Below the pieces are notes generated by a model, which saw only the letters and a list, made by a program, of their open reading frames with translations, had not been told where the DNA came from and did no database searches. Positions 1 through 13,579 of a DNA stretch of 64,000 bases are shown here, one piece after another. Every line of letters begins with the position of its first letter. Positions within the stretch are counted from its first letter, which is position 1. The stretch covers positions 1-64,000 of the IMG/VR virus record IMGVR_UViG_3300048670_000735, one strand, 5' to 3'. The position numbers were made by a program, and so were the translations under genes. This stretch comes from a virus (lineage: Duplodnaviria; Caudoviricetes).

Positions 1-76
1 CCAAGTCCATAGCCATACTAATGACAGACCTAGGTCGGTGCTGTCAAGAATCTTTAAGCATTCATTTAGTTTATCT

Positions 77-310
77 TTATCTTGTGGCTTCATATGCTAA
101 CTCCCTTTCATTCCATTCCGCTAATGTCTTGACAGTAAAGTCTTTCCCTAAATTATAACAGTAGAGCACAGCATCCGTCAAAGATTCAGTCTCATATATT
201 GGTATAGACATAGGTATATCTGTTTTATCATAGACCTCAAATGTATCTACTCCTCCAGGTGAGCAAGAGTATTCCATTTCCAGGATTTCTAGACTTGGCT
301 CGTATGACAT
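77..310 (-). CDS. hypothetical phage protein (77 aa)
   Basis: ORF track; start overlaps the upstream stop (TAATG coupling). Confidence 0.8.
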   Translation of the reverse strand: MSYEPSLEILEMEYSCSPGGVDTFEVYDKTDIPMSIPIYETESLTDAVLYCYNLGKDFTVKTLAEWNERELAYEATR

Positions 311-603
311 TATTTTTGCCCTTTCTTTAGTTCTCGGTTATATGCTTCTGCAATTGCAAATGATAAATCATATGTTAGTTGATATACTGCAGTTAAGGCG
401 TCTAGTCTTCCTTCCGCCTCTGTGCGAACCATAGAATCCATTGCTTCTTCGGTCTCTTGTTCTCTTTCGCTGGCCTCTGATAGTTCTTGTTCTGCCATTA
501 GCATTAGATTTTTTAGTTCACCGTGCATTATATCTAATCCACTAACACCTGCATTAACCATTCGTTGCAAATGGGGCGGGAGCCCAATATCTTCTGCATT
601 CAT
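310..603 (-). CDS. hypothetical protein (start moved to MNAEDIG)
   Basis: ATG at 603 overlaps the TGA of the upstream peptide gene (ATGA). Confidence 0.75.
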   Translation of the reverse strand: MNAEDIGLPPHLQRMVNAGVSGLDIMHGELKNLMLMAEQELSEASEREQETEEAMDSMVRTEAEGRLDALTAVYQLTYDLSFAIAEAYNRELKKGQK

Positions 604-761
604 CGTGATGAACACCGAAATACATTACGATAAGTCCAGCCAAGTCGTTTGTCTGATACCTTAGTCATAACATTTTTACAAGTTGTTACTCCAGCATTTG
701 CTGGGGCGGAGGTAATAGGAAGTAGTCCTAATACAACCATTGCTATAATTGCTTTTTTCAT
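600..761 (-). CDS. small predicted secreted peptide, 53 aa (MKKAIIAMVVLGLLPITSAPANAGVTTCK...FRCSSR)
   Basis: Read by hand, below ORF-track cutoff; ACGAAAGG RBS, promoter at 789-810, Sec-type signal peptide ending A-N-A, two Cys. Confidence 0.75.
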   Translation of the reverse strand: MKKAIIAMVVLGLLPITSAPANAGVTTCKNVMTKVSDKRLGWTYRNVFRCSSR

Positions 762-970
762 TATTCATACCTTTCGTTAGTAGAGTTCATTATATCAGTC
801 GCCACTGACAATAAATGGTCCATACAAGCAATTGCTCCTTGAAGATATTCTTTTGGATATCCCTCATTTGTTACCTCATGGTCCTCAATTGCTTCCATAT
901 CTTGGATTAAAGATAACTTATGTAATTTCATATATTCTATAAAATAAGATGACTTAGTCTGTGTGGTCAA
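761..970 (-). CDS. hypothetical protein
   Basis: ORF track, part of coupled minus-strand array. Confidence 0.75.
   Translation of the reverse strand: MTTQTKSSYFIEYMKLHKLSLIQDMEAIEDHEVTNEGYPKEYLQGAIACMDHLLSVATDIMNSTNERYE
789..810 (-). promoter_or_regulatory. TGTCAG-N10-TATAAT promoter (PafBC/RecA-NDp type), copy 1
   Basis: exact motif and spacing shared with 11 other copies. Confidence 0.8.
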
Positions 971-1136
971 AGTAACCCTCCGCCCATAGGCCTTGTAAGA
1001 AACTAACAGCCATTTCTAAATCATTCCTTAGTTCTGTCTTATCCATTAAATCGGACGGGGTACGAAGATAAAAAAGCTTTGCGTCATGTACAGCATTAAT
1101 CATCTTGTTTAGATCGGATTCAGTATAACCTAACAT
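954..1136 (-). CDS. hypothetical protein
   Basis: ORF track. Confidence 0.75.
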   Translation of the reverse strand: MLGYTESDLNKMINAVHDAKLFYLRTPSDLMDKTELRNDLEMAVSFLQGLWAEGYFDHTD

Positions 1137-1348
1137 AAGTAATCCTCATCTCCCTCTTTTAGTTCATAGAACTTATTAAACTCATCTTGTATGAATTTAT
1201 CTCCTGACATTTCTGCAAATTGTTTATCTGCATAATACTGGCCCTCATCTAGATTATTATTAATCCAGTCCTCTAGTAATTGTTCCGCTATATCTTGGTA
1301 GACAGCGTCAATTACCATTTGATTTACATCTTCTAAGAAACTAGCCAT
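1130..1348 (-). CDS. hypothetical acidic protein
   Basis: ORF track. Confidence 0.75.
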   Translation of the reverse strand: MASFLEDVNQMVIDAVYQDIAEQLLEDWINNNLDEGQYYADKQFAEMSGDKFIQDEFNKFYELKEGDEDYLC

Positions 1349-2132
1349 TTAGTGCCTCTTCCTGTGTGTAGGTTTTCAAAGGTAATAGTACACTATGGGT
1401 CTGACATTTTGCCATAGCCTCTTCATCCTGCCAAGAGCCATAATTACATTCTGAACAGAATTCACCGCAGTCATCTTCACAATAAGATAATGTATCAAAA
1501 GATTGGCAAGCATAGCAACGGTTCTCCCATTCAGCCAATTCTTTTACTTCACCACGGACAATCTCATATTCCCCACCCCAACCTGTTTCTTCCTCAAACT
1601 CTAATGTAAGCAGGCAGTTAGGAACAAGATTACTTAGTTTAGTTAAGATAGTTACAGCAGGTGACCAAGCAGTCTCATACTTATATACAACCCAGTTGTC
1701 ATCACCTTCTGATTTCTCTTCAAGCAATTCTGTATTTGGATATTCATCACCGTCACGGACGGCTACATCCCATTTAGTTCCCCAGTTAGATGTATTCCAC
1801 GAATACCAATCTTTTTGGGTCTTAGCAAACTCAACAGATTTGCGGAACCAATCAGGGTCATTCTGAATATCATAGTTGCCACGAGAAGGCTGGCAAGCAT
1901 ACTCTTCATCAGTAATTCCGTCATCTTTATATGAGTGGATATTATGGAAAGAAAAAACGGGATTAGAATAAGACACCTGTTCAATCTTAGTAGGAAATCC
2001 CATAGTAGAAATATCACCCATACCAAATGTCTCTTGGGCTAATGTAAAAGGCTTATTCAATCTATCTTTAATCATATCTACCTCAGACTTAGGTCCTTGG
2101 ATAGTTAATGTGTTATAACACCAATTTGGCAT
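1341..2132 (-). CDS. DUF1281/YubB-like ferredoxin-fold family protein
   Basis: MPNWC.N.L.I.G N-terminus, WY.W...NWGTKWD and TAWSP motifs typical of this family. Confidence 0.7.
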   Translation of the reverse strand: MPNWCYNTLTIQGPKSEVDMIKDRLNKPFTLAQETFGMGDISTMGFPTKIEQVSYSNPVFSFHNIHSYKDDGITDEEYACQPSRGNYDIQNDPDWFRKSVEFAKTQKDWYSWNTSNWGTKWDVAVRDGDEYPNTELLEEKSEGDDNWVVYKYETAWSPAVTILTKLSNLVPNCLLTLEFEEETGWGGEYEIVRGEVKELAEWENRCYACQSFDTLSYCEDDCGEFCSECNYGSWQDEEAMAKCQTHSVLLPLKTYTQEEALNG

Positions 2133-2159
2133 TTTATATCCTTTCGTTGATATGGCTTA

Positions 2160-2181
2160 ATTATATAATGGACCACTGACA
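2160..2181 (-). promoter_or_regulatory. TGTCAG-N10-TATAAT promoter, copy 2 (also TAGACA -35 18 bp upstream of the -10)
   Basis: motif upstream of ACGAAAGG RBS and ATG 2132. Confidence 0.85.
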
Positions 2182-2199
2182 TTTGTCTAGGCTATATCG

Positions 2200-2242
2200 T
2201 GTGATTCACACCACATTGCCCAGCTTTGTGGTCAAGATCACA
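2200..2242. promoter_or_regulatory. two CRP/GlxR-type boxes (TGTGA-N6-CCACA 2200-2215; TGTGG-N6-TCACA 2227-2242)
   Basis: one mismatch each to TGTGA-N6-TCACA. Confidence 0.65.
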
Positions 2243-2306
2243 GAATTTTCAGGGATTTTATATTGACATCGTAAACAAAATAATATACCCTCAGTCTTTT
2301 GCGGGC
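2243..2306. repeat. tripartite intergenic element copy 1 (AATTTTCAGGG-N14-TCGTAA-N25-TGCGGGC)
   Basis: five copies with conserved blocks and spacing. Confidence 0.8.
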
Positions 2307-2334
2307 AAACAAAAAACCCCAGCTTGCGCTGAGG
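2307..2334 (-). terminator. rho-independent terminator
   Basis: CCTCAGC-GCAA-GCTGGGG followed by TTTTTTGTTT on the minus strand. Confidence 0.8.
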
Positions 2335-2483
2335 CTTATGTTTTAGGTGTACACCAAACTTAATATATGAATATGGCTGCTGATTTCCAACGAAAGAAAT
2401 AAACCGCTTTACTTAGCGCCTGGCCCGCAGACTAGTTAGACGCACCACTTCATTTCTGTATTAAAACCAGGACCAAGGTCCTT
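2307..2483 (-). ncRNA. candidate ~175-nt structured small RNA
   Basis: TGGTATAAT extended -10 at 2490-2498, no substantial ORF, several stems, ends in an intrinsic terminator. Confidence 0.45.
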
Positions 2484-2490
2484 AGACTAA

Positions 2491-2859
2491 TTATACCATA
2501 CTCAGTTGAGTAGAATATTTGTCGACAAACGACTCTAGGCTTAGACTAAATACCTCGGTCTGCAGGTCTTCTTGCATTAGAGTAAACGTTTTGTTTTTCC
2601 AATCGATAATAGGTACCTTGTGCTCGTTGTCTGCTAACTCATTAACTGTAATGCCCCAACCTGTTTCGCTGGACCACTCATCCGCAATTAAATTAGATAT
2701 ACATATACGTGTTGCATATGCTTCGTCATTCCATCGAGGCTTTGCTGTAAGAACACAGTCTGCTAAATTCTCTAGCATTCTGTGGCCTGCCCAATGACCG
2801 TATAGAAATACAACATTCTCATTGGATTGTCTAAATCCAAAGTTTGCTCTGTCTCCCAT
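2491..2859 (-). CDS. conserved hypothetical phage protein (MGDRAN...LYGHWAG)
   Basis: ORF track; RBS upstream. Confidence 0.8.
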   Translation of the reverse strand: MGDRANFGFRQSNENVVFLYGHWAGHRMLENLADCVLTAKPRWNDEAYATRICISNLIADEWSSETGWGITVNELADNEHKVPIIDWKNKTFTLMQEDLQTEVFSLSLESFVDKYSTQLSMV

Positions 2860-2860
2860 T

Positions 2861-3049
2861 TTATTCCGCCTTCGTTAGTTGTTGCTGCTCGTAGTTGAGC
2901 AATTGTACCATTTCTTGGGCCCAGTCCACAAGAGACTCGCCCTGTTCATTTTTATGATGTCCGCAGAAGTAAAGAGACATTTCGTATTTCTTTGCTTCCC
3001 ACATAGCTTGCGCTGCACATTGGTCACACTTAAGCCATTCAGCCATCAT
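2861..3049 (-). CDS. small zinc-binding protein (CxxC...CxHH)
   Basis: CDQC and FCGHH motifs. Confidence 0.7.
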   Translation of the reverse strand: MMAEWLKCDQCAAQAMWEAKKYEMSLYFCGHHKNEQGESLVDWAQEMVQLLNYEQQQLTKAE

Positions 3050-3189
3050 AGGTTTCCACCTTCAATCATTTCAGAAAGACGATCAAGGATCCAAGAATCA
3101 ATGTCAGCGATATCAATCTCTGCTAACTTATCCATAATTTCTTCACGAGCAAACTTATACCCGTCTTGAAACCCGTCTTTGTAATCCAT
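3046..3189 (-). CDS. hypothetical protein, 47 aa (MDYKDGFQDGYKFAREE...)
   Basis: read by hand; coupled on both sides, AGGAGA RBS. Confidence 0.7.
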   Translation of the reverse strand: MDYKDGFQDGYKFAREEIMDKLAEIDIADIDSWILDRLSEMIEGGNL

Positions 3190-3401
3190 TATTTCTCCTT
3201 GTATCCTGTCGCTTCTCTGTCTGACCAGTAAGATTCTTTTAAATTATACTTGTCACGAATACGACTAACTTTCTCAATACTACCAGTTCCAATGTTGAAA
3301 GTCAACGGCCCGCATTGTTCAGGGTCTAGCCCTGTGATTTCTGCATCCCAATAGGCTCTCTCCATTGAGAGCCTATCAGGAGCGGTTAACTCAAAGTACA
3401 T
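3189..3401 (-). CDS. hypothetical protein
   Basis: ORF track, TAATG coupling. Confidence 0.75.
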   Translation of the reverse strand: MYFELTAPDRLSMERAYWDAEITGLDPEQCGPLTFNIGTGSIEKVSRIRDKYNLKESYWSDREATGYKEK

Positions 3402-4030
3402 TAGTTCTCACGCACATTACATACTTCTTGGTCATTGATTTCAATGTTACCGTTCTGTGAATCAGCAAAGAGAGCATCTGTAATTTCTGACTCAAGGTCC
3501 ATATCATAATCATTTTCAAGAATGTTGAAAGAATATGTTCCGCTAACTTCAATAGATGCAGACCATTCAACTTCTTTGATAAGTTCAATACCAAGCGCCT
3601 CAGCAATTTCACGTAAGGTATCTTGGTCTTGTGAGTCTGCATATGCCTCGCAGATAATTTCTTTAGCCGCATCAATCTTAGATGAATACATATTTGCTTG
3701 CTTCTGTGATTGACGTCCATTGTGTAGAGACCATTCAATGCTAGCAACTTTATCTGTTTCATAAGTTGCATCTGAATAGCCGTGGATAACCTTATATGTT
3801 ACTAATAGGTTAGCGTTGTAAGACTCAGGGACTGTTACTGTAGGTGTTGTTGTCTCTTCCATTTGTTCCTCTTTCGTTTGGTTAGGGGTTGATTCTACCA
3901 CACTGGTCTGACACCATACAACTGCTGGGTCTGAACAATTACAGGACGGGTCCTGAAAATGTATCCCCTTAGATACGATCTCAATAGATGCATCACAAGA
4001 TGTACATACATACCAATATGATTTGAACAT
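3401..4030 (-). CDS. hypothetical protein; leaderless long form from 4030 (N-terminal CxxC/CxC) and shorter form from 3862
   Basis: the ORF-track start at 4192 lies inside tRNA-Asp; ATG 4030 is 6 nt after a -10; ATG 3862 has its own promoter and RBS. Confidence 0.7.
   Translation of the reverse strand: MFKSYWYVCTSCDASIEIVSKGIHFQDPSCNCSDPAVVWCQTSVVESTPNQTKEEQMEETTTPTVTVPESYNANLLVTYKVIHGYSDATYETDKVASIEWSLHNGRQSQKQANMYSSKIDAAKEIICEAYADSQDQDTLREIAEALGIELIKEVEWSASIEVSGTYSFNILENDYDMDLESEITDALFADSQNGNIEINDQEVCNVREN
3892..3913 (-). promoter_or_regulatory. TGTCAG-N10-TAGAAT promoter, copy 3 (intragenic)
   Basis: exact motif. Confidence 0.75.
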
Positions 4031-4036
4031 GTCGCT

Positions 4037-4058
4037 ATTATAGCGGGTCCCACTGACA
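4037..4058 (-). promoter_or_regulatory. TGTCAG-N10-TATAAT promoter, copy 4 (leaderless)
   Basis: exact motif, ATG 6 nt downstream. Confidence 0.85.
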
Positions 4059-4066
4059 TTTACAAG

Positions 4067-4127
4067 AATTTTCAGGGATTTTTTTTGTGATTCGTAACAC
4101 AAAAATTTTGCCTTTACCTTTGCGGGC
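4067..4127. repeat. tripartite element copy 2, overlapping a CRP-like box (4086-4101)
   Basis: AATTTTCAGGG-N14-TCGTAA-N23-TGCGGGC. Confidence 0.8.
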
Positions 4128-4133
4128 GCTTTG

Positions 4134-4207
4134 CGATCTGTAACGGACTTGAACCGTCGACCTCTACCGTGACAGGGTAGCGCTCTAACCAACTGAGCTA
4201 ACAGACC
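4134..4207 (-). tRNA. trnD: tRNA-Asp (GTC)
   Basis: GGTCTGT/ACAGATC acceptor stem, AGCTCAGTTGGTTAGAGC D-arm, CTACC-CTGTCAC-GGTAG anticodon arm, GGTTCAAGTCC T-arm; no encoded CCA. Confidence 0.95.
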
Positions 4208-4213
4208 AAATGG

Positions 4214-4242
4214 TGAGCAGTTTTAAATCTTGCTCAGGATTT
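4214..4242 (-). ncRNA. small H-type pseudoknot motif, copy 1
   Basis: AAATC-CTGAGCAA-GATTT-AAAAC-TGCTCA; covaries with the copy at 5739-5765. Confidence 0.5.
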
Positions 4243-4249
4243 TTTTTAA

Positions 4250-5254
4250 TTAAAACGCAGAAACTAATTTCTTAATTTTATTTTTTTCTGCTGTAAGAAC
4301 TGGGTCAAACCCTGATGCGCCAGCCATAAGAGTTTCGCCATTGCCACGCCCTGAACGATAATAATCTAAACGCTCAGTTAGTGCATTGAACGCACCCCAC
4401 TTTGTGCCTTTGATATTAGCGTTAGTTGGTGAATTATGATAAAGGTCATCAAGAAGAACGACTTTGTTTTCCCACTTCTTGATTGCGCCCTTAGCATCTT
4501 TTTCAGGCTTAGGATAGATTGTCTGAATCAACTTAGAGAATTCAGCATCGGTGATTGATTGAGAATAAAGCGCTTTCGCTTCTGCTTCAAATTCATCAAA
4601 GTAACCAAGCGCAAGACCAAGAGTCTCACGAGCAACAGCGATGCGACCTTCAACAGATTGCGTGTGGCGAATTTTGAATGATTGCTTTGCATTACGCATT
4701 GCAAGGTTCAAAGTGTTTTGGCATACAACACGAACAGGAGTAACAGCAGCCTGAACAGCAACTGAACCATCGTGTGATGTCCATACGATTAGATATAACT
4801 TTGTCGCATCATTAGCGCCTTGTGGGTCAAGAACCATTGTGCGAGGAATATCAACAGTGCCGAATACAACTTTGCCCTTCTTAAGAGAACCAGCAGATTC
4901 CCAACGGCACTCAGGATTTGCATCGTGAATTGCATCAGCAAATGCGAATAATTCTTCATTCTGCACTGGCTTGTAACGCTTTCCAACAGTTGCAAGAACA
5001 TCTGTGCCCTTGTTGAATGGGTTATCACGAATGACAAGAGATGCGGTAGAAACATCATTCCAAGATTCTGGAATGTGCTCAGTGATTGGAGATAAACGAA
5101 CATTCCAATTTGCCAACTTTGCTTCTTCAAGCATTGATTGTGTAGTTACTTCTTCATCTTGTGTGAAGATGCGATTTGCTAGGTTGTGCCAAGCAGGTGC
5201 GCCACGAAGAGCGAAAGCAACTTCGCCATTTTCCATTTCTAGATTGTGAGCCAT
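4250..5254 (-). CDS. DUF932 / TIGR03299-type phage/plasmid protein
   Basis: MAH..E, AWH.L, Y.PVQN.E.F, SAGSL..G, SHDGS, TPVRVVCQNTL, IRHT, GT.WGAFNA motifs. Confidence 0.85.
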   Translation of the reverse strand: MAHNLEMENGEVAFALRGAPAWHNLANRIFTQDEEVTTQSMLEEAKLANWNVRLSPITEHIPESWNDVSTASLVIRDNPFNKGTDVLATVGKRYKPVQNEELFAFADAIHDANPECRWESAGSLKKGKVVFGTVDIPRTMVLDPQGANDATKLYLIVWTSHDGSVAVQAAVTPVRVVCQNTLNLAMRNAKQSFKIRHTQSVEGRIAVARETLGLALGYFDEFEAEAKALYSQSITDAEFSKLIQTIYPKPEKDAKGAIKKWENKVVLLDDLYHNSPTNANIKGTKWGAFNALTERLDYYRSGRGNGETLMAGASGFDPVLTAEKNKIKKLVSAF

Positions 5255-5287
5255 ATATTTATTACCTTTCGTTTGATTGTTGATGCA

Positions 5288-5309
5288 AGTATAACAGGGG
5301 GCACTGACA
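5288..5309 (-). promoter_or_regulatory. TGTCAG-N10-TATACT promoter, copy 5
   Basis: exact motif. Confidence 0.85.
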
Positions 5310-5347
5310 TTGTCTAGATTAGTTAGTCATTTGTCCGAATTGATCCG

Positions 5348-5363
5348 TGTGATTAATCTCACA
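5348..5363. promoter_or_regulatory. CRP/GlxR box, perfect (TGTGA-ttaatc-TCACA)
   Basis: consensus match. Confidence 0.75.
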
Positions 5364-5424
5364 AAATTTCAGGGTTATCCACAACTAGTCGTAAACCTGT
5401 GGAAAACCCCTTACATGTGCGGGC
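5364..5424. repeat. tripartite element copy 3 containing two DnaA boxes (TTATCCACA 5375-5383; TGTGGAAAA 5398-5406)
   Basis: conserved blocks and spacing; matches to TTWTNCACA. Confidence 0.8.
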
Positions 5425-5481
5425 TTCCCGCACCACCAACTGGAGCTAGCAGCGCTAACCCCAGTTGATCGATGCGATTAC

Positions 5482-5703
5482 TTATGAATTTATTTTTGCA
5501 ACAGTGTCTTCATTTAAAAACATTGCTGTTGTTTTCTTTTTCTTTTGCATATCAAAAACGTAAGCATTTACTTTTCCACTAAAGCGGCGGATGTTAGAAA
5601 ATACTAACTCAGTTAGGTGCTCTTTATCTACACCTTGCTCTGAATAAATAGTTACATCATTTAATTTGTTTGCGTCATAGATTTCAACTCTAAAGCGAGC
5701 CAT
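5482..5703 (-). CDS. hypothetical protein
   Basis: ORF track; AAAGG RBS. Confidence 0.8.
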   Translation of the reverse strand: MARFRVEIYDANKLNDVTIYSEQGVDKEHLTELVFSNIRRFSGKVNAYVFDMQKKKKTTAMFLNEDTVAKINS

Positions 5704-5738
5704 TGTATTACCTTTGTTAGTAGTTGTCCCCGAAGGGA

Positions 5739-5765
5739 GAGCAGTTTGGCGACATACTCAGGTCG
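5739..5765 (-). ncRNA. small H-type pseudoknot motif, copy 2
   Basis: CGAC-CTGAGTAT-GTCG-CCAAAC-TGCTC, followed by a UUCG hairpin. Confidence 0.5.
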
Positions 5766-5774
5766 TTTATTTAT

Positions 5775-6191
5775 TTAGAGATACTTAGCAATTTGCTTCA
5801 TTGTAGAAGCATTTACTGTTTCCTCATCTGTCATCTTGAGAATTGTGAGAGCATTTGAGATGTCCTCTTTCATTTCACGATAACTGTGCTGATGGATAAC
5901 CTCAAAATCTTTTTGAGGTTCAGCAGGGAAAGTTCCCTCTTTTGTGATGATGTCAAAATCAACATTGAGAGTGTTGTTCCAAGAGCGATAGTTTGTGCGA
6001 AGGTTCTCAGCCTTTGAGAAATTAGCAATAGCCCACTTGCCAATTTCCTTTTTCCACGCTTCTACCGCTTTGGTGTGCTTTGCTTCTTTTGCTTCTTGTG
6101 TTGCGTAGTTAGTTTCTAACTCAGCAAGACGAGCCTCTAGTGCCTTGATTACCTTTGGTGTTGCCACCTTTACTGTAATTGCTCTGCTCAT
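5775..6191 (-). CDS. hypothetical protein
   Basis: ORF track; ACGAAAGG RBS. Confidence 0.85.
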   Translation of the reverse strand: MSRAITVKVATPKVIKALEARLAELETNYATQEAKEAKHTKAVEAWKKEIGKWAIANFSKAENLRTNYRSWNNTLNVDFDIITKEGTFPAEPQKDFEVIHQHSYREMKEDISNALTILKMTDEETVNASTMKQIAKYL

Positions 6192-6229
6192 TTTGTATTA
6201 CCTTTCGTTGGTTGGTTGTTGTTGTGAAT

Positions 6230-6251
6230 AGTATAGCAGGGGGGTCTGACA
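6230..6251 (-). promoter_or_regulatory. TGTCAG-N10-TATACT promoter, copy 6 (TGTCAG forms the loop of a 10-bp inverted repeat 6236-6261)
   Basis: exact motif. Confidence 0.85.
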
Positions 6252-6268
6252 ACCCCCCTGCCACCGCC

Positions 6269-6445
6269 TTATACTAGGCTTGCGTTGCTAACTGTTGTCC
6301 AACGAGTTTCTTTCGTTGGCATTTCTAGTAGCACTCTCACCGAGCCAGATGAGTTAGGAATAATCTCTTTGATTACGCCTGTCTTTTTTGACTTTAGGGT
6401 GGTGAATAAATCACCGACCTTGTAAGTGTATCCATTTACTGTCAT
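6269..6445 (-). CDS. small SH3/KOW-like beta protein (start moved to MTVNG)
   Basis: GAAAGGA RBS before ATG 6445; the ORF-track start lies within the promoter; fold guessed from YKVGD...TGVI pattern. Confidence 0.7.
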   Translation of the reverse strand: MTVNGYTYKVGDLFTTLKSKKTGVIKEIIPNSSGSVRVLLEMPTKETRWTTVSNASLV

Positions 6446-6471
6446 TTTGCTTCCTTTCTGTTTAGGGTTGT

Positions 6472-6493
6472 ATTTTAGCATTGGGGTCTGACA
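6472..6493 (-). promoter_or_regulatory. TGTCAG-N10-TAAAAT promoter, copy 7
   Basis: exact motif. Confidence 0.85.
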
Positions 6494-6531
6494 TTTGTCT
6501 AGCCCTATCTCAGTATTTGAGAATGTTATTG

Positions 6532-6547
6532 TGTGACCTTAGTCACA
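6532..6547. promoter_or_regulatory. CRP/GlxR box, perfect (TGTGA-ccttag-TCACA)
   Basis: consensus match. Confidence 0.75.
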
Positions 6548-6805
6548 CTCAGGTAGCCACGCTTCCAAGTGGTGAGCATCAACTATTGCAGACGCAGGGC
6601 AGGAAGTCTGTCCTCGCCAAGTGATACCTTCAGGTAAATTGATCTCACGGCTGTATTCCTCATCATAGAATGCATCAATAGCATCTATGCAAGGTTGCAC
6701 CATTGATACGGGAACGGGTGGGTAATGATTACCCTGTAAGTGATAAGCAAGTCCTGCCTCTAGTGATAGTTCATCTGCAAGTCCTAGTGCTGTTGTGTAT
6801 CCCAT
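6539..6805 (-). CDS. conserved hypothetical phage protein (HL.GNHYPPVP...HHL.AW)
   Basis: ORF track. Confidence 0.8.
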   Translation of the reverse strand: MGYTTALGLADELSLEAGLAYHLQGNHYPPVPVSMVQPCIDAIDAFYDEEYSREINLPEGITWRGQTSCPASAIVDAHHLEAWLPECD

Positions 6806-7011
6806 TATGCCACCACCTTTAGAATTGCGTATGAACCGCCTGCATTAATTTCATCTATTGCAGGCTGAATTGCAGGCATTACTAATTCTTTTAGCATTCC
6901 TTCTAGCATAGTAATTTGCGCTTCTGTATCTAGTGCAAGAAAACGCTGTGCGATTGGATGTGTTTCGTCAAACTCTGTTACGAATTTGAGAAAGTGTTCT
7001 ACTTGTGTCAT
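6805..7011 (-). CDS. hypothetical protein
   Basis: ORF track; ACGAAAGG RBS. Confidence 0.8.
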   Translation of the reverse strand: MTQVEHFLKFVTEFDETHPIAQRFLALDTEAQITMLEGMLKELVMPAIQPAIDEINAGGSYAILKVVA

Positions 7012-7040
7012 TTGTAGCCTTTCGTTGTTGGTATGAGAGT

Positions 7041-7062
7041 ATTATAGCGTGCTCCACTGACA
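7041..7062 (-). promoter_or_regulatory. TGTCAG-N10-TATAAT promoter, copy 8
   Basis: exact motif. Confidence 0.85.
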
Positions 7063-7095
7063 TTACCTAATCCATACTCGGCGTGTCGCAGCTTT

Positions 7096-7111
7096 TGTGA
7101 GATTAATCACA
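7096..7111. promoter_or_regulatory. CRP/GlxR box, perfect (TGTGA-gattaa-TCACA)
   Basis: consensus match. Confidence 0.75.
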
Positions 7112-7172
7112 AAATTTCAGGGGTTGTGGATAAACCTCGTAAGCCTGTGGATAAACCCTCACCTATGCGGGC
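7112..7172. repeat. tripartite element copy 4 containing two perfect DnaA boxes (TGTGGATAA 7125-7133 and 7146-7154)
   Basis: conserved blocks and spacing. Confidence 0.8.
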
Positions 7173-7190
7173 GAGCTGCATATTTATGCG

Positions 7191-7322
7191 TTACTCTGCA
7201 TTTTTATTTTTGTGTTTGATCTTTCGTGTGTATTTTTTTTTATTGCGAACAGGTTGCGCCGCATTACTGCGACGCAATTCCTGAATGCGTTTTACTTTAT
7301 CTTGAAGTGAAGTTAGGAACAT
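7191..7322 (-). CDS. 43-aa very basic peptide (MFLTSLQDKVKRIQELRRSNAAQPVRNKKKYTRKIKHKNKNAE)
   Basis: read by hand; overlaps the end of the upstream gene. Confidence 0.6.
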   Translation of the reverse strand: MFLTSLQDKVKRIQELRRSNAAQPVRNKKKYTRKIKHKNKNAE

Positions 7323-7488
7323 TATACCCACTTGCTTCGTGAAATCGTGTTACATCAAATCGCTCATTATCTTTCGCAAACATTTCAGCGAAATCATTTA
7401 CGACTTTAGAAAAAACAGCGGGGTGAATTTTATTGCTCGCATACTTTAGAATTTCTGCCGTTGCGATGTAATCTTTTCTAGTCATCAT
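7297..7488 (-). CDS. hypothetical phage protein (MTRKDY...DN.RFD..RF family)
   Basis: ORF track. Confidence 0.8.
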   Translation of the reverse strand: MMTRKDYIATAEILKYASNKIHPAVFSKVVNDFAEMFAKDNERFDVTRFHEASGYNVPNFTSR

Positions 7489-7691
7489 TTTACTACGACC
7501 CTTCTGCCTTCACGATAAAATAATTTCGTGTAGCATTTTCCGCTAGGTGTGTAAAGATTTACGGTTGAGTATTCATCAGCAAATCCCCAGTCAATGAATT
7601 TAGCAAACTCGGTGTGTGCTTCTAATTCATCTGAGTATTCTTTTATAAAGTGTAGCGGTTCGCTATCATTAGCAACAGTTATTTTATACAT
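7485..7691 (-). CDS. hypothetical protein
   Basis: ORF track, coupled. Confidence 0.75.
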   Translation of the reverse strand: MYKITVANDSEPLHFIKEYSDELEAHTEFAKFIDWGFADEYSTVNLYTPSGKCYTKLFYREGRRVVVK

Positions 7692-7849
7692 TAGTTATTT
7701 TCTCCATTCAAAAATAGTGAGCCGTCATCTACGCAAGAGCAAGGCTCTACATCATAATTTCTTTCGTCTCCAAAGAATATAAATCCTGCGCCACCGCATT
7801 CATCACATTCCGCAGAAATAATTTCTAGGTATCGTTTTACATTAGCCAT
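7691..7849 (-). CDS. 52-aa zinc-finger-like peptide (CDECGGAG...CSC)
   Basis: read by hand; ACGAAAGGG RBS, own promoter at 7882-7903. Confidence 0.7.
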   Translation of the reverse strand: MANVKRYLEIISAECDECGGAGFIFFGDERNYDVEPCSCVDDGSLFLNGENN

Positions 7850-7967
7850 TTAGGTTTTCCCTTTCGTTTGTTTGAGTTGTAATTGTAGCAGATAGGACTG
7901 ACAAGGCTTGCGCCTTGCTTGCTTCACGTTGTGCAATCACGTGCTTTTTGAATTCTTCTAGGTTCAT
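7842..7967 (-). CDS. 41-aa hypothetical peptide (MNLEEFKKHV...)
   Basis: read by hand; AAGGAG RBS, ATGA coupling. Confidence 0.6.
   Translation of the reverse strand: MNLEEFKKHVIAQREASKAQALSVLSATITTQTNERENLNG
7882..7903 (-). promoter_or_regulatory. TGTCAG-N10-TACAAT promoter, copy 9
   Basis: exact motif. Confidence 0.8.
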
Positions 7968-8089
7968 TCAAACGCTCCTTCTTCTAGTAGTCCTAATTCG
8001 ATGTTGAATAATTCATCGGGAGTGGCTTCGGATAAATCTACCCAGCCAGCACCCTCGTTGTCCATTCGGAAAATTTCGATGTATCCCAT
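7964..8089 (-). CDS. 41-aa acidic peptide (MGYIEIFRMDNEGAGWVD...)
   Basis: read by hand; fills the gap between coupled genes. Confidence 0.65.
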   Translation of the reverse strand: MGYIEIFRMDNEGAGWVDLSEATPDELFNIELGLLEEGAFE

Positions 8090-8091
8090 TA

Positions 8092-8298
8092 TTATTCACC
8101 AACCTTTACTGCGATTGTTGCGAATTTATTTCGCAAGCCACCCGCATTTATTTCGATTAGGTAGGCTTCAGTTTTTTCGCCATACCAAATTTCTGGGCGG
8201 TGTTCCGCTGAAATAATCTCACCTGAAAAGTGGCGAGAGTTTGAGCGATAAGTTTTTCCTACAAGTAGGTTTTCGATTGTGTATAGTTTGGTAGCCAT
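8092..8298 (-). CDS. hypothetical protein
   Basis: ORF track; RBS. Confidence 0.8.
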   Translation of the reverse strand: MATKLYTIENLLVGKTYRSNSRHFSGEIISAEHRPEIWYGEKTEAYLIEINAGGLRNKFATIAVKVGE

Positions 8299-8334
8299 TG
8301 GCAGACCTTCTTTCGTTTGTTGGTTATAGTGGAT

Positions 8335-8356
8335 ATTATAGCGGATAGGACTGACA
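8335..8356 (-). promoter_or_regulatory. TGTCAG-N10-TATAAT promoter, copy 10
   Basis: exact motif. Confidence 0.85.
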
Positions 8357-8404
8357 AAGTGTTAATTCTGCAAGGGTTTGTCTCAATATGTGGAGCGTGG
8401 GTTA

Positions 8405-8443
8405 TGTGATAAGCGTCACACGGGCTATGTGATAAATCTCACA
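8405..8443. promoter_or_regulatory. two perfect CRP/GlxR boxes (8405-8420, 8428-8443)
   Basis: TGTGA-taagcg-TCACA; TGTGA-taaatc-TCACA. Confidence 0.75.
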
Positions 8444-8504
8444 AAATTCACGGGATTTTATAACTCTTTCGTAACGACACGCCCGACCCCGTGCCTATGC
8501 GGGC
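8444..8504. repeat. tripartite element copy 5 (AAATTCACGGG-N14-TCGTAA-N23-TGCGGGC)
   Basis: conserved blocks and spacing. Confidence 0.75.
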
Positions 8505-8536
8505 CAGCTTGACATTGTCAAGCCGACACGCCGTGT

Positions 8537-8635
8537 TTATTTAATTTTTTCTAGAATCTTTTCTAATTCTTTTAGTTGTTCTAGATTTAGGTGATCTAGT
8601 TGAATTGCTTTTTCAAATCCGAATAAATCGCTCAT
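8537..8635 (-). CDS. 32-aa peptide (MSDLFGFEKAIQLDHL...)
   Basis: read by hand; TAATG coupling. Confidence 0.65.
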   Translation of the reverse strand: MSDLFGFEKAIQLDHLNLEQLKELEKILEKIK

Positions 8636-8745
8636 TAGTTTAACCCGTTTTCTTTTAGGTCTTTTATTACGGCGATTAGTAGCGGGATAGTTACGCCCGC
8701 TAGTAGTAATTGGACGGCGGTAGTAAGTAGGCGATTAGTAGTCAT
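8635..8745 (-). CDS. 36-aa membrane peptide (MTTNRLLTTAVQLLLAGVTIPLLIAVIK...)
   Basis: read by hand; TAATG coupling; hydrophobic helix. Confidence 0.65.
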   Translation of the reverse strand: MTTNRLLTTAVQLLLAGVTIPLLIAVIKDLKENGLN

Positions 8746-8900
8746 TACTTATTCTTCTTTCTTTTATAAATCTTATAAGCGATTAGTGCTAGGGCGGTGA
8801 TAATAATAGTGTGCCAAGGTAGATAGATAGACCCTAAGAAACTATCTAACTCAAATCCGTATTCGCTTGTTATGTATAAATCAAATCCGTTAGGTATCAT
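8745..8900 (-). CDS. 51-aa membrane peptide with basic C-tail
   Basis: read by hand; TAATG coupling; ...WHTIIITALALIAYKIYKRKKNK. Confidence 0.65.
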   Translation of the reverse strand: MIPNGFDLYITSEYGFELDSFLGSIYLPWHTIIITALALIAYKIYKRKKNK

Positions 8901-9085
8901 TACGCCACCCATTCCATATCTGCTAATAGTGCATCTACTTGCTCATCTGTTAGGTCTGTATCCTCTAACTCTTCTTCATCTTGCTCTACCTCTTCATCTA
9001 GGTAGGCGTATTGGTCTGCGACATCTTCTTGGATAGTTTCCCATTTAGATACGCTGTTAGTGCGTGTGTTGTATGCGTATGACAT
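8900..9085 (-). CDS. very acidic 61-aa protein
   Basis: ORF track. Confidence 0.75.
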   Translation of the reverse strand: MSYAYNTRTNSVSKWETIQEDVADQYAYLDEEVEQDEEELEDTDLTDEQVDALLADMEWVA

Positions 9086-9237
9086 TAGTTCTGTTCTACC
9101 TTTCTCATATGGGCTACTACGCCCTTAGAAACCTTTTGTAGGTCTGCCACTACCTTATTCATTTCATCTGCTGATGAAGCCTTGAAATCAACGCCTAGTA
9201 GTTGAGCGCCGTCCCATAGTGAGTATGTGATTGTCAT
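9085..9237 (-). CDS. hypothetical protein (start moved to MTITYSL)
   Basis: GAAAAGGA RBS before ATG 9237. Confidence 0.7.
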   Translation of the reverse strand: MTITYSLWDGAQLLGVDFKASSADEMNKVVADLQKVSKGVVAHMRKVEQN

Positions 9238-9276
9238 TTTATTTTCTATCCTTTTCGTTAGTTGGTTATTTGGTTG

Positions 9277-9330
9277 AGAGCGATTATTTGCTAGGCTCAC
9301 CTTTCGGATTATTTGCTAGGCTCACGCTCT
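9277..9330 (-). repeat. 19-bp direct repeat pair (9282-9300, 9307-9325) enclosed by an inverted repeat; candidate symmetric 5'-UTR RNA
   Basis: GATTATTTGCTAGGCTCAC x2, flanked by AGAGCG/CGCTCT. Confidence 0.7.
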
Positions 9331-9357
9331 AATTCTTTATTTAATTTGTATGTCGTA

Positions 9358-9379
9358 AGACTATCACGACCTACTGACA
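9358..9379 (-). promoter_or_regulatory. TGTCAG-N10-TAGTCT promoter, copy 11
   Basis: exact motif. Confidence 0.75.
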
Positions 9380-9407
9380 TTTAGCCTCATTTAGGGCTAG
9401 TGTCGTG

Positions 9408-9423
9408 TGTGAGTTACCTCACA
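9408..9423. promoter_or_regulatory. CRP/GlxR box, perfect (TGTGA-gttacc-TCACA)
   Basis: consensus match. Confidence 0.75.
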
Positions 9424-9581
9424 CCTACTAGGTTATGCTCGGCGTAGTTACCGCCACACATTACGCATAGGGAGTATGCGGTTACTCTACCGCAACCTGC
9501 TGAGCAGGATACATAGCCAAGACGCTTAGCGTCTGACTCTACTAGGTAGTCATTACGACTTTCCCAAATTCTGTTAGTCAT
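9414..9581 (-). CDS. 55-aa Cys4 zinc-finger-like peptide (CSAGC...CVMC)
   Basis: read by hand; GAAAGG RBS, promoter at 9632-9653. Confidence 0.7.
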   Translation of the reverse strand: MTNRIWESRNDYLVESDAKRLGYVSCSAGCGRVTAYSLCVMCGGNYAEHNLVGVR

Positions 9582-9631
9582 TTTAGACCTAACCTTTCTT
9601 AGTAAGACTTTCTTACTTTCTTTATACCTTA

Positions 9632-9653
9632 ATCATAGCAAGGGGGGCTGACA
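9632..9653 (-). promoter_or_regulatory. TGTCAG-N10-TATGAT promoter, copy 12
   Basis: exact motif. Confidence 0.8.
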
Positions 9654-9701
9654 TTTATACCCCTATTCTCGGGCGTGTCTAAATAAATCTTAGAATAATC
9701 G

Positions 9702-9717
9702 TGTGATCTCCACCACA
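9702..9717. promoter_or_regulatory. CRP/GlxR-type box (TGTGA-tctcca-CCACA)
   Basis: one mismatch. Confidence 0.6.
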
Positions 9718-9852
9718 ATCACGCTCATTATGGGCGGTCTATCCATTTTGTCCGATTTTGATTTATATGTGTATCGTGCAAATTAAAAATTTATTAACAT
9801 TTTTTAAAATCTGAACTGCTGGTCAACTAAAAATAAATGGTAAAATTATAAT

Positions 9853-10374
9853 ATGAAAAATTATTTAACTGAGGATAACCGTGTTTGGGAAATAGAAAAT
9901 TTTCTTTCTGAAGAAGAGCTATTGAAATTTGATGACCATATAAAGCAAACAGAATGGGTTACTCAGGAAAGATGGACAAACCCTACGTATTTTAATAACA
10001 CCTCTGTGTTTCCAGATATTAAGTTTATAGAAAATAGGGCTAACAAATTAACTGATCACAAATATATATGGAGTGGTTTTGGTATTATAATGCGAATCCA
10101 ACCTGGCATGAAACTAAACCCACATGTTGATAACTACAATAGGCCAAATTTTATAAAACATGATTGTCTTTCAGCTACCATTTATTTAAACGATGATTTT
10201 GAAGGTGGAGAGCTTTACTATTTAAATCTAAATATTAAATATAAACCCAAGCGTGGCTCCATAGTTTTTCATCCAGGATTTGAAGATCTTTACATGCATG
10301 GTGTGAAAGAAGTTATTGGTTCAAGCAGACACGCATTAGGATTAGTTGGAATAAGCTTGACACCGAAAATATAA
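9853..10374 (+). CDS. 2OG-Fe(II) oxygenase (prolyl 4-hydroxylase-like)
   Basis: HVD...IYLNDDFEGGEL...HGV...R facial triad; leaderless (TAAAAT 6 nt before ATG). Confidence 0.9.
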   Translation: MKNYLTEDNRVWEIENFLSEEELLKFDDHIKQTEWVTQERWTNPTYFNNTSVFPDIKFIENRANKLTDHKYIWSGFGIIMRIQPGMKLNPHVDNYNRPNFIKHDCLSATIYLNDDFEGGELYYLNLNIKYKPKRGSIVFHPGFEDLYMHGVKEVIGSSRHALGLVGISLTPKI

Positions 10375-10489
10375 ATAGTATAATTTTATAGGGGGGTCGG
10401 GGGGTCAGTAAATCAATAATATTTAAATATATTATATATAAGACCTAAGACCTAAGATCAAGTGATACTTGGAATGGTACAATAAAAGT

Positions 10490-11770
10490 ATGAAAACTGT
10501 ACACCTTATTGGTGATTGTCATTCAACTAGAATCTGGGAACACTGGAATCCTGAAACATGTCCCGTAGACTTTAAAGTATGGGGTGTAGCTGGAATGACA
10601 GCTTACGCATTTGATCCAGTAAAATTTGAAGAAGAAAAATATGAATCAAGCGGCATAGAAAGCCAAAGCGACTACCTTGATATGCCAAGAGAATACTGGG
10701 TAAAACCATTCAATGAATTTAAATCCCCAGACCTGGTACTAGTTTGGCTAGGATATGTCGATATTAGACAATGGCTTCCAAAGCATAAGAATACTGAAGA
10801 GGTTGTTATAAAGTGTCTTGATCGTATACGTGAGTATTATAAGGATTCTGTTATACAGCTTATTGAACCCCTCCCACAATTCACTGAAATGCTTTTAAAG
10901 TACGAGGGCATATCTCCAAGCTACACATACGATGAAAGACAAAGCATCAACAAAATTTTTATAGACACTCTAAATAAATATGTTATTCAGCATAGAATGC
11001 CTTCTCCAATTACCCAAGATGACATTAAAAAAGCAGTTGGACTTAAAGAGTTTACACCTGAAGATTGTGCAACATGGGCACCTCATCCACAAGATTCACT
11101 AAAAAGAGAATATTGGGCAAAAATTTATAATTTGTTTATGGAAAAGTCTTTAAAATCATTCTTTAGGATAATTTCACCAGCTGGCTCTGGAAACACATTT
11201 GCTATAAATTTATTGAGAGAGTATGTTAAAGACTCCGAGCATGTTAATAGCTATCATGACTATGATTTTTTTGATAACAAAATGCACAATGTAGCTTTGT
11301 TAAGAAACCCGTATGATTCAATTGCATCTAGTGTAGAGCTTAGCCTTGAATTTATTGATAAAAATCAAATTAAATATAACTTAAAAAATGCCTTAGAAAC
11401 AAGAATTGAAAAATCAATAAAAGATTACGAATGGTTTTTAAACACATTAAATAAAGAAAAAAATTCATACATTATGATATATTCATTTGATTCTTTAACA
11501 AAAGATCCAGAAGAATTTTTAATTAAATTTTCTAATACGTTTAATTTAAATTTAAAAAAATTTAATAAAGAATTATTATCAAAAACCATTTTACAAAAAA
11601 TGAAAAATCTTGAAATTGAATCAGTTAGAACTCCAAGAGATATAAGTAAAATGAGGTCCATTATAAACAAGGCTGTTTTATATAGCGAGCCCATGAAAGA
11701 CTTATTTGCTAAATATCAAAAACAATTAGAAAGGGAGAACATAAATGGTAATGCAAGAGCCTCAATTTGA
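10490..11770 (+). CDS. fusion: SGNH/GDSL-like N-domain plus sulfotransferase-like P-loop domain
   Basis: LIGDCHS...LGYVD N-half; SPAGSGNTF and LLRNPYDSIAS C-half; leaderless start at 10490. Confidence 0.6.
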   Translation: MKTVHLIGDCHSTRIWEHWNPETCPVDFKVWGVAGMTAYAFDPVKFEEEKYESSGIESQSDYLDMPREYWVKPFNEFKSPDLVLVWLGYVDIRQWLPKHKNTEEVVIKCLDRIREYYKDSVIQLIEPLPQFTEMLLKYEGISPSYTYDERQSINKIFIDTLNKYVIQHRMPSPITQDDIKKAVGLKEFTPEDCATWAPHPQDSLKREYWAKIYNLFMEKSLKSFFRIISPAGSGNTFAINLLREYVKDSEHVNSYHDYDFFDNKMHNVALLRNPYDSIASSVELSLEFIDKNQIKYNLKNALETRIEKSIKDYEWFLNTLNKEKNSYIMIYSFDSLTKDPEEFLIKFSNTFNLNLKKFNKELLSKTILQKMKNLEIESVRTPRDISKMRSIINKAVLYSEPMKDLFAKYQKQLERENINGNARASI

Positions 11771-12398
11771 TGAGACAGTAGGAAAAACTATTAAGGTAAT
11801 AGCACCTATGGGTTCTGGATGCGTTTTATTTTCTAAACTTTTGCTTCATGTTTGTGACGACATTAGCATAACGTCTGGGCAGGGCATAAAAGACGAATGG
11901 TTTGGCAATAATTGGCCAGAAATGATGGATCAAGAAGATCCTTTTGTTTATATATTAAGAGATCCAGTAGATTCAGTAACTCAAAATGTAAAAATTTTTA
12001 TGAAGTTTAAAGAAGGATATGACAAGCTATTTCAAGAAGAAGATCATCTACAAACTTCAATTTCTATTGCATTAGGAAAATATGAAATGCTTTTTACTAA
12101 ATCAAAAGAAAAAGAAAATATTTTTAAAATTACCTATGAGTCAATGTTTACAAATCCAAACCAAACTATTAAGAATTTTGTAAACTTTTTTAATTTGGAG
12201 CTAAATGATAAATATTCTGACTCTATTACAATAAAAGATATTTATCCAAAAATAGCAGGAACACATCTTTCATTTTGGATACCAGACAATCACACCTCTG
12301 CATTTACTGAAATTGAAGATAAAGTTCGTAACAACGAAGCAGTAAAAGAAATGCAAAAAAAATATTTTGAGTACAAAAAGGAGATAGAGGCTTGCTAA
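11745..12398 (+). CDS. sulfotransferase-like P-loop protein
   Basis: APMGSGC, YILRDPVDSV, ITYE...NP motifs. Confidence 0.6.
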   Translation: MVMQEPQFDETVGKTIKVIAPMGSGCVLFSKLLLHVCDDISITSGQGIKDEWFGNNWPEMMDQEDPFVYILRDPVDSVTQNVKIFMKFKEGYDKLFQEEDHLQTSISIALGKYEMLFTKSKEKENIFKITYESMFTNPNQTIKNFVNFFNLELNDKYSDSITIKDIYPKIAGTHLSFWIPDNHTSAFTEIEDKVRNNEAVKEMQKKYFEYKKEIEAC

Positions 12399-13565: not shown

Positions 13566-13579
13566 GGTATACTATAAAC

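Follow-up and report, generated by a model that had tools for sequence, protein, structure and literature searches.

In the early gene cluster of an uncultured phage, boxes of the form TGTGA-N6-TCACA make up a real, face-specific regulatory array, standing in helical register with PafBC-type promoters at steps of one turn, apart from minor off-phase classes. A dimeric regulator most likely acts on these boxes from one face of the DNA and, judging from sequence, it would probably be the CRP of the host. We give roughly even chances to the full reading, in which a host CRP-family regulator acts through the phased boxes on the PafBC-type early promoters.

The window, i.e., the whole stretch of 64,000 nucleotides that was analysed, was scanned for the box pattern. 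The scan returned six perfect boxes and four with one mismatch (Table 1), at exactly the coordinates given by an earlier interpretation made from the letters alone (hereafter, the sequence-only reading). Six perfect boxes compare with 0.12 expected, and ten boxes with at most one mismatch compare with 2.86 expected; neither count was reached in any of 100 shuffles. Across the 75,153-bp contig, 10 of 11 boxes with at most one mismatch lie inside positions 2200–9717, the sole other being at 69630. A similar density in shuffled or late-region sequence, which according to the sequence-only reading would have refuted its proposal, was not seen. As that reading also held, every box is in or at the edge of an intergenic gap of the ORF list, with those at 6532 and 9408 overlapping the last codons of the upstream ORF. 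The existence of the boxes and their non-random occurrence are confirmed, as is their restriction to the early gene cluster.

This cluster consists of ~10 kb of small leftward genes read from 13 PafBC-type promoters. The pattern TGTC[AG]G-N10-TANNNT has 13 minus-strand sites between 789 and 9653 and only two elsewhere in the contig. The architecture comprises TGTCAG at about −26, ten bases, and TANNNT, with no fixed −35; the N10 spacing is kept in all 13 promoters, while the bases upstream of TGTCAG vary. Eight of the 13 have a box upstream. The five boxless promoters did not figure in the sequence-only reading. One ATG, at 4030, lies 7 nt past the hexamer of the 4037 promoter, so the gene looks leaderless and the likely start site is fixed. 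All 13 promoters fit the PafBC consensus, tGTCgg(N10)tA(N3)T with a −26 element, as given in the available part of the mycobacterial study (PMC8635444), including the GTC triplet and the exact N10 spacing; their dependence on PafBC is a prediction.

Table 1. Boxes, early promoters and repeat modules in the window. Offsets run from the lower coordinate of the promoter hexamer to the lower coordinate of the box.
Feature	Position	Strand	Match	Offset (bp)	Remarks
Box	2200..2215		1 mismatch	40 (hexamer 2160)	proximal in tandem pair
Box	2227..2242		1 mismatch	67	distal in tandem pair; adjoins repeat module
Box	4086..4101		1 mismatch	49	within repeat module; TTACGA word in box spacer
Box	5348..5363		perfect	60	upstream of DUF932 gene; adjoins repeat module
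Box	6532..6547		perfect	60	stand-alone
Box	7096..7111		perfect	55	off register; adjoins repeat module
Box	8405..8420		perfect	70	proximal in tandem pair
Box	8428..8443		perfect	93	distal in tandem pair; adjoins repeat module
Box	9408..9423		perfect	50	stand-alone
Box	9702..9717		1 mismatch	70	stand-alone; at outermost promoter of cluster
Promoter, PafBC-type	2160..2181	-	TGTCAG-N10-TATAAT		boxes upstream
Promoter, PafBC-type	4037..4058	-			ATG 7 nt past hexamer
Promoter, PafBC-type	5288..5309	-			drives DUF932 gene
Promoter, PafBC-type	6472..6493	-			box upstream
Promoter, PafBC-type	7041..7062	-			box upstream
Promoter, PafBC-type	8335..8356	-			two boxes upstream
Promoter, PafBC-type	9358..9379	-			box upstream
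Promoter, PafBC-type	9632..9653	-			box upstream
Promoters, boxless	789-810, 1385-1406, 3892-3913, 6230-6251, 7882-7903	-			span 789..7903
Repeat module	5368..5424	-	GCCCGCA ... TTACGA-N17-CCCTGAA		one of five copies
Repeat module, other copies	2248-2306, 4071-4127, 7116-7172, 8447-8504				strand-specific

The offsets in the sequence-only reading (40, 49, 50, 55, 60, 60, 70 and 70 bp) were reproduced exactly; missing from its list were the distal boxes of the two tandem pairs (2227 at 67 and 8428 at 93). The ~10-bp ladder that it proposed holds, and the register is much stronger across relatives and IMG/VR than in the window. Across 80 IMG/VR relatives and two unbiased scans, offsets are 40, 50, 60, 70–71, 81 and 92 bp, and 553 unique fragments give peaks at 40, 49/50, 59/60, 70/71, 81 and 92. 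The two IMG/VR pattern scans, which allowed any gap, yielded 229 and 139 unique matches. The first has 9 matches at 39–40, 89 at 49–51, 34 at 55–56, 96 at 59–63 and 1 elsewhere; the second has 104 at 69–72, 14 at 80–82, 8 at 92–95 and 13 elsewhere. The minor off-phase classes, made up of a minority of boxes half a turn off, are at 55–56 (34/229) and 67–68. In a periodicity scan the best period was 10.3–10.5 bp (R 0.64–0.67), a strength attained by none of 5000 random sets; the input was pairs of gene group and offset, which are not fully independent because recombination can move promoter cassettes. When promoters are grouped by their downstream gene, the offset shifts by ~10 bp between phages. 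Hence, conservation of phasing in related phages, a check suggested by the sequence-only reading, is found, with the period kept at 10.3–10.5 bp.

That reading had also invoked the phasing needed for class I CRP activation, and here it stands in part. If transcription starts 7 nt beyond the hexamer, the boxes are centred at −54.5, −64.5, −74.5 and −84.5. Class I CRP sites in E. coli are centred near −61.5, −71.5, −82.5 and −92.5. The one-face, whole-turn spacing is shared, but the box centres are ~3 bp away from the E. coli positions and do not coincide with them, a shift that may be due to the different core promoter. The likeness to class I CRP promoters (E. coli CAP; actinobacterial Crp/GlxR) extends to the 16-bp TGTGA-N6-TCACA site, the variable upstream distances and the use of one helix face; besides the shifted register, the phage differs in its PafBC-type core without a −35. 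It also packs six perfect-consensus sites into 7.5 kb, whereas real CAP sites usually deviate from consensus, according to the accessible text of PMC10187061.

The array is conserved. Each of 80 related loci carries 1–8 perfect boxes, with 7–18 promoters on the gene strand and 0–1 on the other strand. In five complete relatives (112–120 kb), all 30 perfect boxes lie in one 4.0- to 8.1-kb stretch per genome, and the reversed control pattern has no match. A logo of 493 unique instances has T at position 6 (47%) and A at position 11 (60%); only its spacer and flank columns are informative, because the core motif picked the instances. Assignment of the motif to the CRP/GlxR consensus is borne out, including the favoured T and A. 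The system is absent from cultured relatives: in Streptomyces phage Jay2Jay, no box and no promoter motif occurs within the left 16 kb.

Could the boxes be functionless, either as parts of duplicated promoter cassettes or as the DNA counterpart of a small RNA hairpin, their spacing being a product of copying? We consider this highly improbable. Five of the ten window boxes do belong to a repeated module, three have almost identical spacers when either orientation is allowed, and promoter cassettes seem to have moved from one gene context to another. However, the half-sites do not vary, whereas both the 6-bp spacers and the stretches between box and promoter do, and loose clustering of 492 unique spacers gives 26 groups whose modal offsets are still on the ladder. 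For a hairpin, a 5-bp stem with a 6-nt loop would be weak; double changes among box variants are compensated in 6 cases and uncompensated in 59, no RNA family was found there by Rfam, and the module folds share no structure. Conservation concerns the sequence rather than the pairing of a hairpin.

Every copy of the module, which the sequence-only reading does not describe, either surrounds a box or stands immediately upstream of one; about half of the boxes in the window are attached to the module. These module-adjoining boxes have no helical register and may therefore serve the module instead. Other phage-private repeated words are also present in the early region.

From its sequence, the phage is assigned to uncultured siphoviruses of actinobacteria, because its relatives encode WhiB (five of the five complete ones) and its portal shares 57% identity with Streptomyces phage portals. 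We infer a low-GC freshwater actinobacterium as the host; the IscA-like protein of the phage has 56–67% identity to homologues across the whole class and singles out no host. The boxes are candidate binding sites for a dimeric CRP-family regulator that would be supplied by the host, as the phage group appears to encode none. Indeed, HTH_Crp_2, cNMP-binding and WYL domains are absent from all five complete relatives, and neither a Pfam scan of 61 proteins nor a PHROGs scan of 26 early ORFs turned up a regulator family. By comparison, 117 of 121 sampled actinobacterial genomes of the class have a CRP-family gene. Five streamlined candidate host genomes have one each, whose product aligns with solved mycobacterial CRP structures (E 3e-74 for the copy in one of them) and has an identical recognition helix, around RETVNK. 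A RETVGR helix reads TGTGA, according to the portion of PMC10187061 at hand. All five candidates also carry a pair of neighbouring WYL-domain genes, the arrangement to be expected of pafB and pafC.

A different binder is conceivable, namely a dimeric phage protein, small and early or injected and not recognisable as CRP, for which the boxes would be operators tuning the early promoters from a fixed helix face. We regard this as unlikely, albeit the most serious of the alternatives. None of the 26 scanned early ORFs has a named function, leaving room for a novel DNA binder. The arrangement also looks phage-private: the composite of box and promoter occurs in 0 of 401 sampled bacterial genomes, perfect boxes are nearly absent from the five candidates, and the early region holds the further private words mentioned above. 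On the other hand, early promoters have to fire before phage proteins exist, and the motif is the CRP/GlxR consensus letter for letter, down to T at 6 and A at 11. Moreover, no helix-turn-helix family was detected in the early ORFs scanned, and repressor operators usually overlap the promoter rather than lying 18–70 bp upstream at variable whole turns.

Alternatively, host CRP may bind, with the boxes serving mainly as a high-affinity sink that would draw the only CRP of the host away from the genes it controls, akin to the titration that the sequence-only reading had suggested, or else as a brake upon transcription of the early genes. The five candidates, each with a single CRP gene, have 0, 0, 0, 0 and 1 perfect boxes, and each phage genome brings 4–8. 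In mycobacterial ChIP-seq, enrichment drops as mismatches to the consensus rise, as stated in the available text of PMC4117774, so perfect boxes should be top-affinity sites. A pure sink, however, needs neither helical register nor confinement upstream of promoters, both of which are strong here, and a brake acting by occlusion would place sites over the promoter, where no box overlaps the −26 or −10 element. We therefore rate a principal role as sink or brake as rather improbable.

Returning to the reading that we prefer, in which host CRP works through the phased boxes, the regulator would exert its effect on the RNA polymerase/PafBC complex from a single helix face, because sites are found almost only at whole turns (40, 50, 60, 70–71, 81 and 92). 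Class-I-like co-activation or a phased DNA bend would be the likeliest mode of action. We infer CRP as the binder and activation as the effect. Counting against this reading are the five boxless promoters, the minority of boxes half a turn off, the lack of register in the module-adjoining boxes, the ~3-bp distance from the E. coli positions and the absence of the system from cultured relatives. So does the finding that, with up to one mismatch, the five candidate genomes have 9–21 boxes versus 9–18 for the reversed control, by which count a TGTGA-type regulon is not visible in them. A more elaborate scheme, which we offer tentatively and hold to be somewhat less probable than its negation, is that a PafBC-type core answers the single-stranded DNA and damage sensor and is boosted or gated by phased CRP sites, giving a type of promoter that the hosts are without and one that would also capture the host's only CRP. 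If true, early transcription in abundant freshwater actinophages would work as a logic gate with two global regulators of the host as its inputs, coupled to capture of the only CRP in cells with almost no perfect site of their own.

Phages are already known to borrow a host global regulator. In the large lytic phages SPO1 and T5, the host-takeover clusters are blocks of numerous small, functionally uncharacterised genes, all on the same strand, in which each short operon has a strong early promoter. The block described here appears alike in these respects. Host-takeover promoters in SPO1 and T5 are plain sigma-A or sigma-70 promoters, and we know of no pairing of them with two host regulators. 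For mycobacterial PafBC promoters, the accessible part of PMC8635444 mentions no CRP site upstream; the promoters in the window serve early phage genes instead of repair genes. Our literature search found no paper connecting PafBC motifs with phages. A parallel is seen in marine cyanophages, which have 1–16 NtcA sites per genome (mean of 8.9; PMC3037559, available text). There too, many sites for a CRP-family global regulator of the host (a predicted role in our case) are thought, in that text, to link phage transcription to host physiology. The NtcA sites differ in being GTA-N8-TAC, in being spread over the genome, in replacing the −35, and in host phylum and regulator, and the portion of that report at hand describes no helically spaced ladder of sites ahead of a promoter that belongs to a second activator. 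A phased array of perfect CRP-type sites feeding PafBC-type (sigma-adaptation) promoters was not found described in the literature searched. If the proposed mechanism is true, the array is a natural test bed for an upstream activator cooperating with PafBC-bound RNA polymerase, tells how the early genes of very abundant freshwater phages are timed when the hosts are streamlined, and offers compact, strong, two-input promoters for actinobacterial genetics.

Of the sequence-only interpretation as a whole, the boxes, the register and the CRP/GlxR consensus stand, whereas its suggestion that early transcription senses cAMP and carbon status is weak: a search for the class III cyclase domain (PF00211) detected it in a Corynebacterium control and in none of the five streamlined candidate genomes. 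The candidate hosts keep CRP although that search gave no such domain in any of the five, which sharpens the question of why CRP is retained.

Genes from position 1 to about 9600 are all on the minus strand. On that strand of the leftward gene block, the motif TGTC[AG]G-N10-TANNNT occurs at 13 sites; the other 65 kb contain two. The part of a published study that describes the in vivo consensus of PafBC-dependent promoters gives it as tGTCgg(N10)tA(N3)T, with the 5′ part at −23 to −28 and without a −35 motif (PMC8635444). The 13 sites have this form, in agreement with the sequence-only reading, which had assigned a PafBC-type input to early transcription. Five of the 13 promoters lack a CRP/GlxR-type box (TGTGA-N6-TCACA). 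At the promoter at 4037–4058, an ATG lies 7 nt past the −10 hexamer (4028–4042), as in leaderless actinobacterial genes, and the downstream gene, which encodes a small Cys-rich protein, is probably leaderless.

A motif search of the window returned all ten boxes of the sequence-only reading, with the same coordinates and mismatch counts. Boxes are far more frequent than expected, both perfect ones (6 observed versus 0.12 expected) and those with at most one mismatch (10 versus 2.86), with neither number being reached by any shuffle. Elsewhere in the contig, there is one such box, with one mismatch, at 69630. The same clustering is seen in five complete relatives, where all 30 perfect boxes fall within one stretch of 4.0–8.1 kb per genome, and a reversed control pattern has no matches.

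The boxes had also been proposed to be helically phased to the early promoters. Measured from the −10 hexamer to the box (lower coordinate to lower coordinate), the eight offsets on which this proposal was based (40, 49, 50, 55, 60, 60, 70, and 70) were reproduced exactly; the list did not include the distal boxes of two tandem pairs, with offsets of 67 and 93. With the transcription start taken 7 nt after the hexamer, box centers are at −54.5, −63.5/−64.5, −69.5, −74.5, and −84.5, a register ~3 bp away from the E. coli class I positions. Eight offsets from one window are a thin basis for a ladder, and relatives were therefore examined. The DUF932 gene (4250–5254) has 330 relatives in IMG/VR, of which the best 80 are 92–98% identical. 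Each of these 80 loci has 1–8 perfect boxes, and 7–18 promoters on the gene strand versus 0–1 on the opposite strand. Among 553 unique box-to-promoter fragments, offsets peak at 40, 49/50, 59/60, 70/71, 81, and 92, with smaller peaks at 55/56, 63/64, and 67/68. When 1051 promoters were sorted by downstream gene into 57 groups, the box of one and the same gene was found at an offset of 40, 50, 60, or 70, depending on the phage. For the 71 pairs of group and offset (53 and 42 under stricter support), which are not entirely independent, as promoter cassettes seem mobile, the best period is 10.3–10.5 bp, with a vector strength of 0.64–0.67 that was matched by none of 5000 random sets (periods of 7–14 bp). 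The ladder persists when 492 unique spacers are grouped loosely into 26 clusters.

Two IMG/VR-wide scans, for a perfect box followed by any gap and then the promoter motif, made no use of this phage family. For gaps of 16–46, there were at least 229 unique matches, and those listed have offsets of 39–40 (n = 9), 43 (n = 1), 49–51 (n = 89), 55–56 (n = 34), and 59–63 (n = 96); among the matches listed, 68 of 215 stretches bear little resemblance to the 81 family loci. With gaps of 47–77, there were at least 139 unique matches, with offsets of 69–72 (n = 104), 80–82 (n = 14), and 92–95 (n = 8), and 13 elsewhere. Same-face phasing is conserved in related phages, and the scans agree with the 10.3–10.5 bp period. 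The helical repeat of DNA is ~10.4 bp; since the ladder has the same step, the boxes face the promoter complex from one side. The box array is real, and stronger than the window alone could reveal.

In principle, a palindrome could act either as a protein site or as an RNA hairpin. The half-site letters of the boxes are conserved, in contrast to the variable flanks and six-base center. In box variants that precede promoters, pairing is retained by 6 double changes and disrupted by 59. Pairing is therefore not conserved, and neither Rfam nor folding supports a hairpin: the only Rfam matches over 1–11000 were tRNA-Asp and a sub-threshold hairpin at 5429–5476, and folding of five copies of the repeat module described below gave no structure in common. 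We consider the boxes to be predicted protein sites, not hairpins. A dimeric regulator would act through the box array, in a face-specific manner, on the PafBC-type early promoters.

Early promoters depend on factors already in the cell. Host CRP would be the most likely binder, with about an even chance of being the protein involved. Five complete genomes of 1.38–1.50 Mb from streamlined actinobacteria each have exactly one CRP-family gene, with a mycobacterial-type helix. Compared with solved structures, CRP from one of them matches mycobacterial CRP (E = 3e-74) and GlxR (4e-71), and the stretch around RETVNK is identical to solved CRP in the printed alignment. In the relevant section of a review, the corresponding RETVGR helix in E. 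coli CAP is described as reading TGTGA (PMC10187061), and part of a ChIP-seq study of mycobacterial CRP reports that each mismatch to the consensus lowers binding (PMC4117774). In all five genomes, there is also an adjacent pair of WYL genes, the arrangement expected for pafBC. Therefore, the parts for the proposed combination of CRP and PafBC-type inputs exist in plausible hosts.

A CRP-family gene is present in 117 of 121 genomes of an actinobacterial-class sample, obtained via a bacterial contig, and the box-plus-promoter composite in 0 of 401 sampled bacterial genomes; these tallies, and one of 113 of the 121 genomes for the phage IscA-like protein, include a few genomes marked as unpublished, and no claim is based on those alone. 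The IscA-like protein was rejected as a guide to the host, its identity being a flat 56–67% across the 113 genomes. Given the absence of the composite from the 401 genomes, the phage probably built its own composite promoter and did not copy one from a host. This absence also leaves room for a factor private to the phage, which would be the next likeliest binder but an unlikely one. HTH_Crp_2, cNMP-binding, and WYL domains are found in 0 of 5 complete relatives; Pfam (61 contig proteins) and PHROGs (26 early ORFs) named no regulator families, and the lone helix-turn-helix match is sub-threshold and outside the early block.

Sensing of host cAMP or carbon status, suggested by the sequence-only reading, is the weakest component of that model. 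No class III cyclase domain was found in any of the five streamlined genomes, making a cAMP signal doubtful there. Perfect boxes number 0, 0, 0, 0, and 1 in these genomes, and counting revealed no host regulon, with boxes of at most one mismatch being at control level.

The virus is represented by a single contig of 75,153 bp (36.7% G+C), the right end of which falls within a gene; the window comprises its first 64 kb. The contig has genes for a portal, protease, capsid protein, tape measure, and tail fibers; the portal shares ~57% identity with its counterparts in ~130-kb Streptomyces phages. A near-mode search of a phage collection found no near-identical phages, and the sole match in distant mode was a DUF932-family gene of Streptomyces phages. 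All five complete relatives (112–120 kb) encode a WhiB-like protein, indicating that the group consists of phages of actinobacteria. Relatives of this protein were found at six loci in bacterial contigs. The best (78%) is on a contig of 23 kb binned as Bacteroidia (L090), probably a mis-binned phage; the next, on a contig of an Aquiluna bin (L091), is 58% identical. Cultured relatives also have a leftward block of small genes with a DUF932 gene. However, neither the strict promoter motif nor a box with at most one mismatch occurs in the left 16 kb of Streptomyces phage Jay2Jay. Thus, the regulatory system has been exchanged while the gene block was retained.

Metatranscriptome contigs from four freshwater/lake datasets (four studies) cover 1–9800 and not 9801–10150. 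This coverage is consistent with a freshwater habitat and with the early block being expressed; the contigs prove neither, since DNA carry-over is possible, and they cannot reveal transcript starts, so none were drawn from them. A rightward block at 9853–16040 (28–34% G+C), which begins beyond the end of these contigs at ~9800, encodes a 2OG-Fe(II) oxygenase, three sulfotransferase-like proteins, and a tryptophan halogenase.

Of the ten boxes, five touch a ~57-bp module on the gene strand that had not been mentioned before. The module is positioned after terminators or the tRNA-Asp gene, and its core has 426 copies on the gene strand and one on the opposite strand across the 81 loci. A box follows just 150 of the 329 unique copies. 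Module-attached boxes have offsets of 55, 59–61, 67–68, or 92, with no clear register; the five stand-alone boxes in the window have offsets of exactly 40, 50, 60, 70, and 70. The module may represent an upstream element or a second class of promoter.

Repeat modules and tRNA genes in the window
Feature	Position	Strand	Remark
Module GCCCGCA-~23 bases-TTACGA-N17-CCCTGAA	2248–2306	minus	
Module, same pattern	4071–4127	minus	
Module, same pattern	5368–5424	minus	
Module, same pattern	7116–7172	minus	
Module, same pattern	8447–8504	minus	
tRNA-Asp(GTC)	4133–4207		within early block, immediately upstream of a module
tRNA-Ile(TAT)	13779–13854		low-GC stretch past early block

Two modules contain DnaA-box-like words (TTATCCACA, one TTTTCCACA) at 5375–5383, 5398–5406, 7125–7133, and 7146–7154, inverted in one module and direct in the other; the contig has a single further copy, at 39648. 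Upstream of the DUF932 gene, the word is near-invariant across 64 unique sequences of relatives. Another word, GGCGTGTC, occurs in either orientation in early gaps at 7080, 8476, 8525, and 9672, and again at 60705; in many relatives, it is found in the spacer between box or module and promoter.
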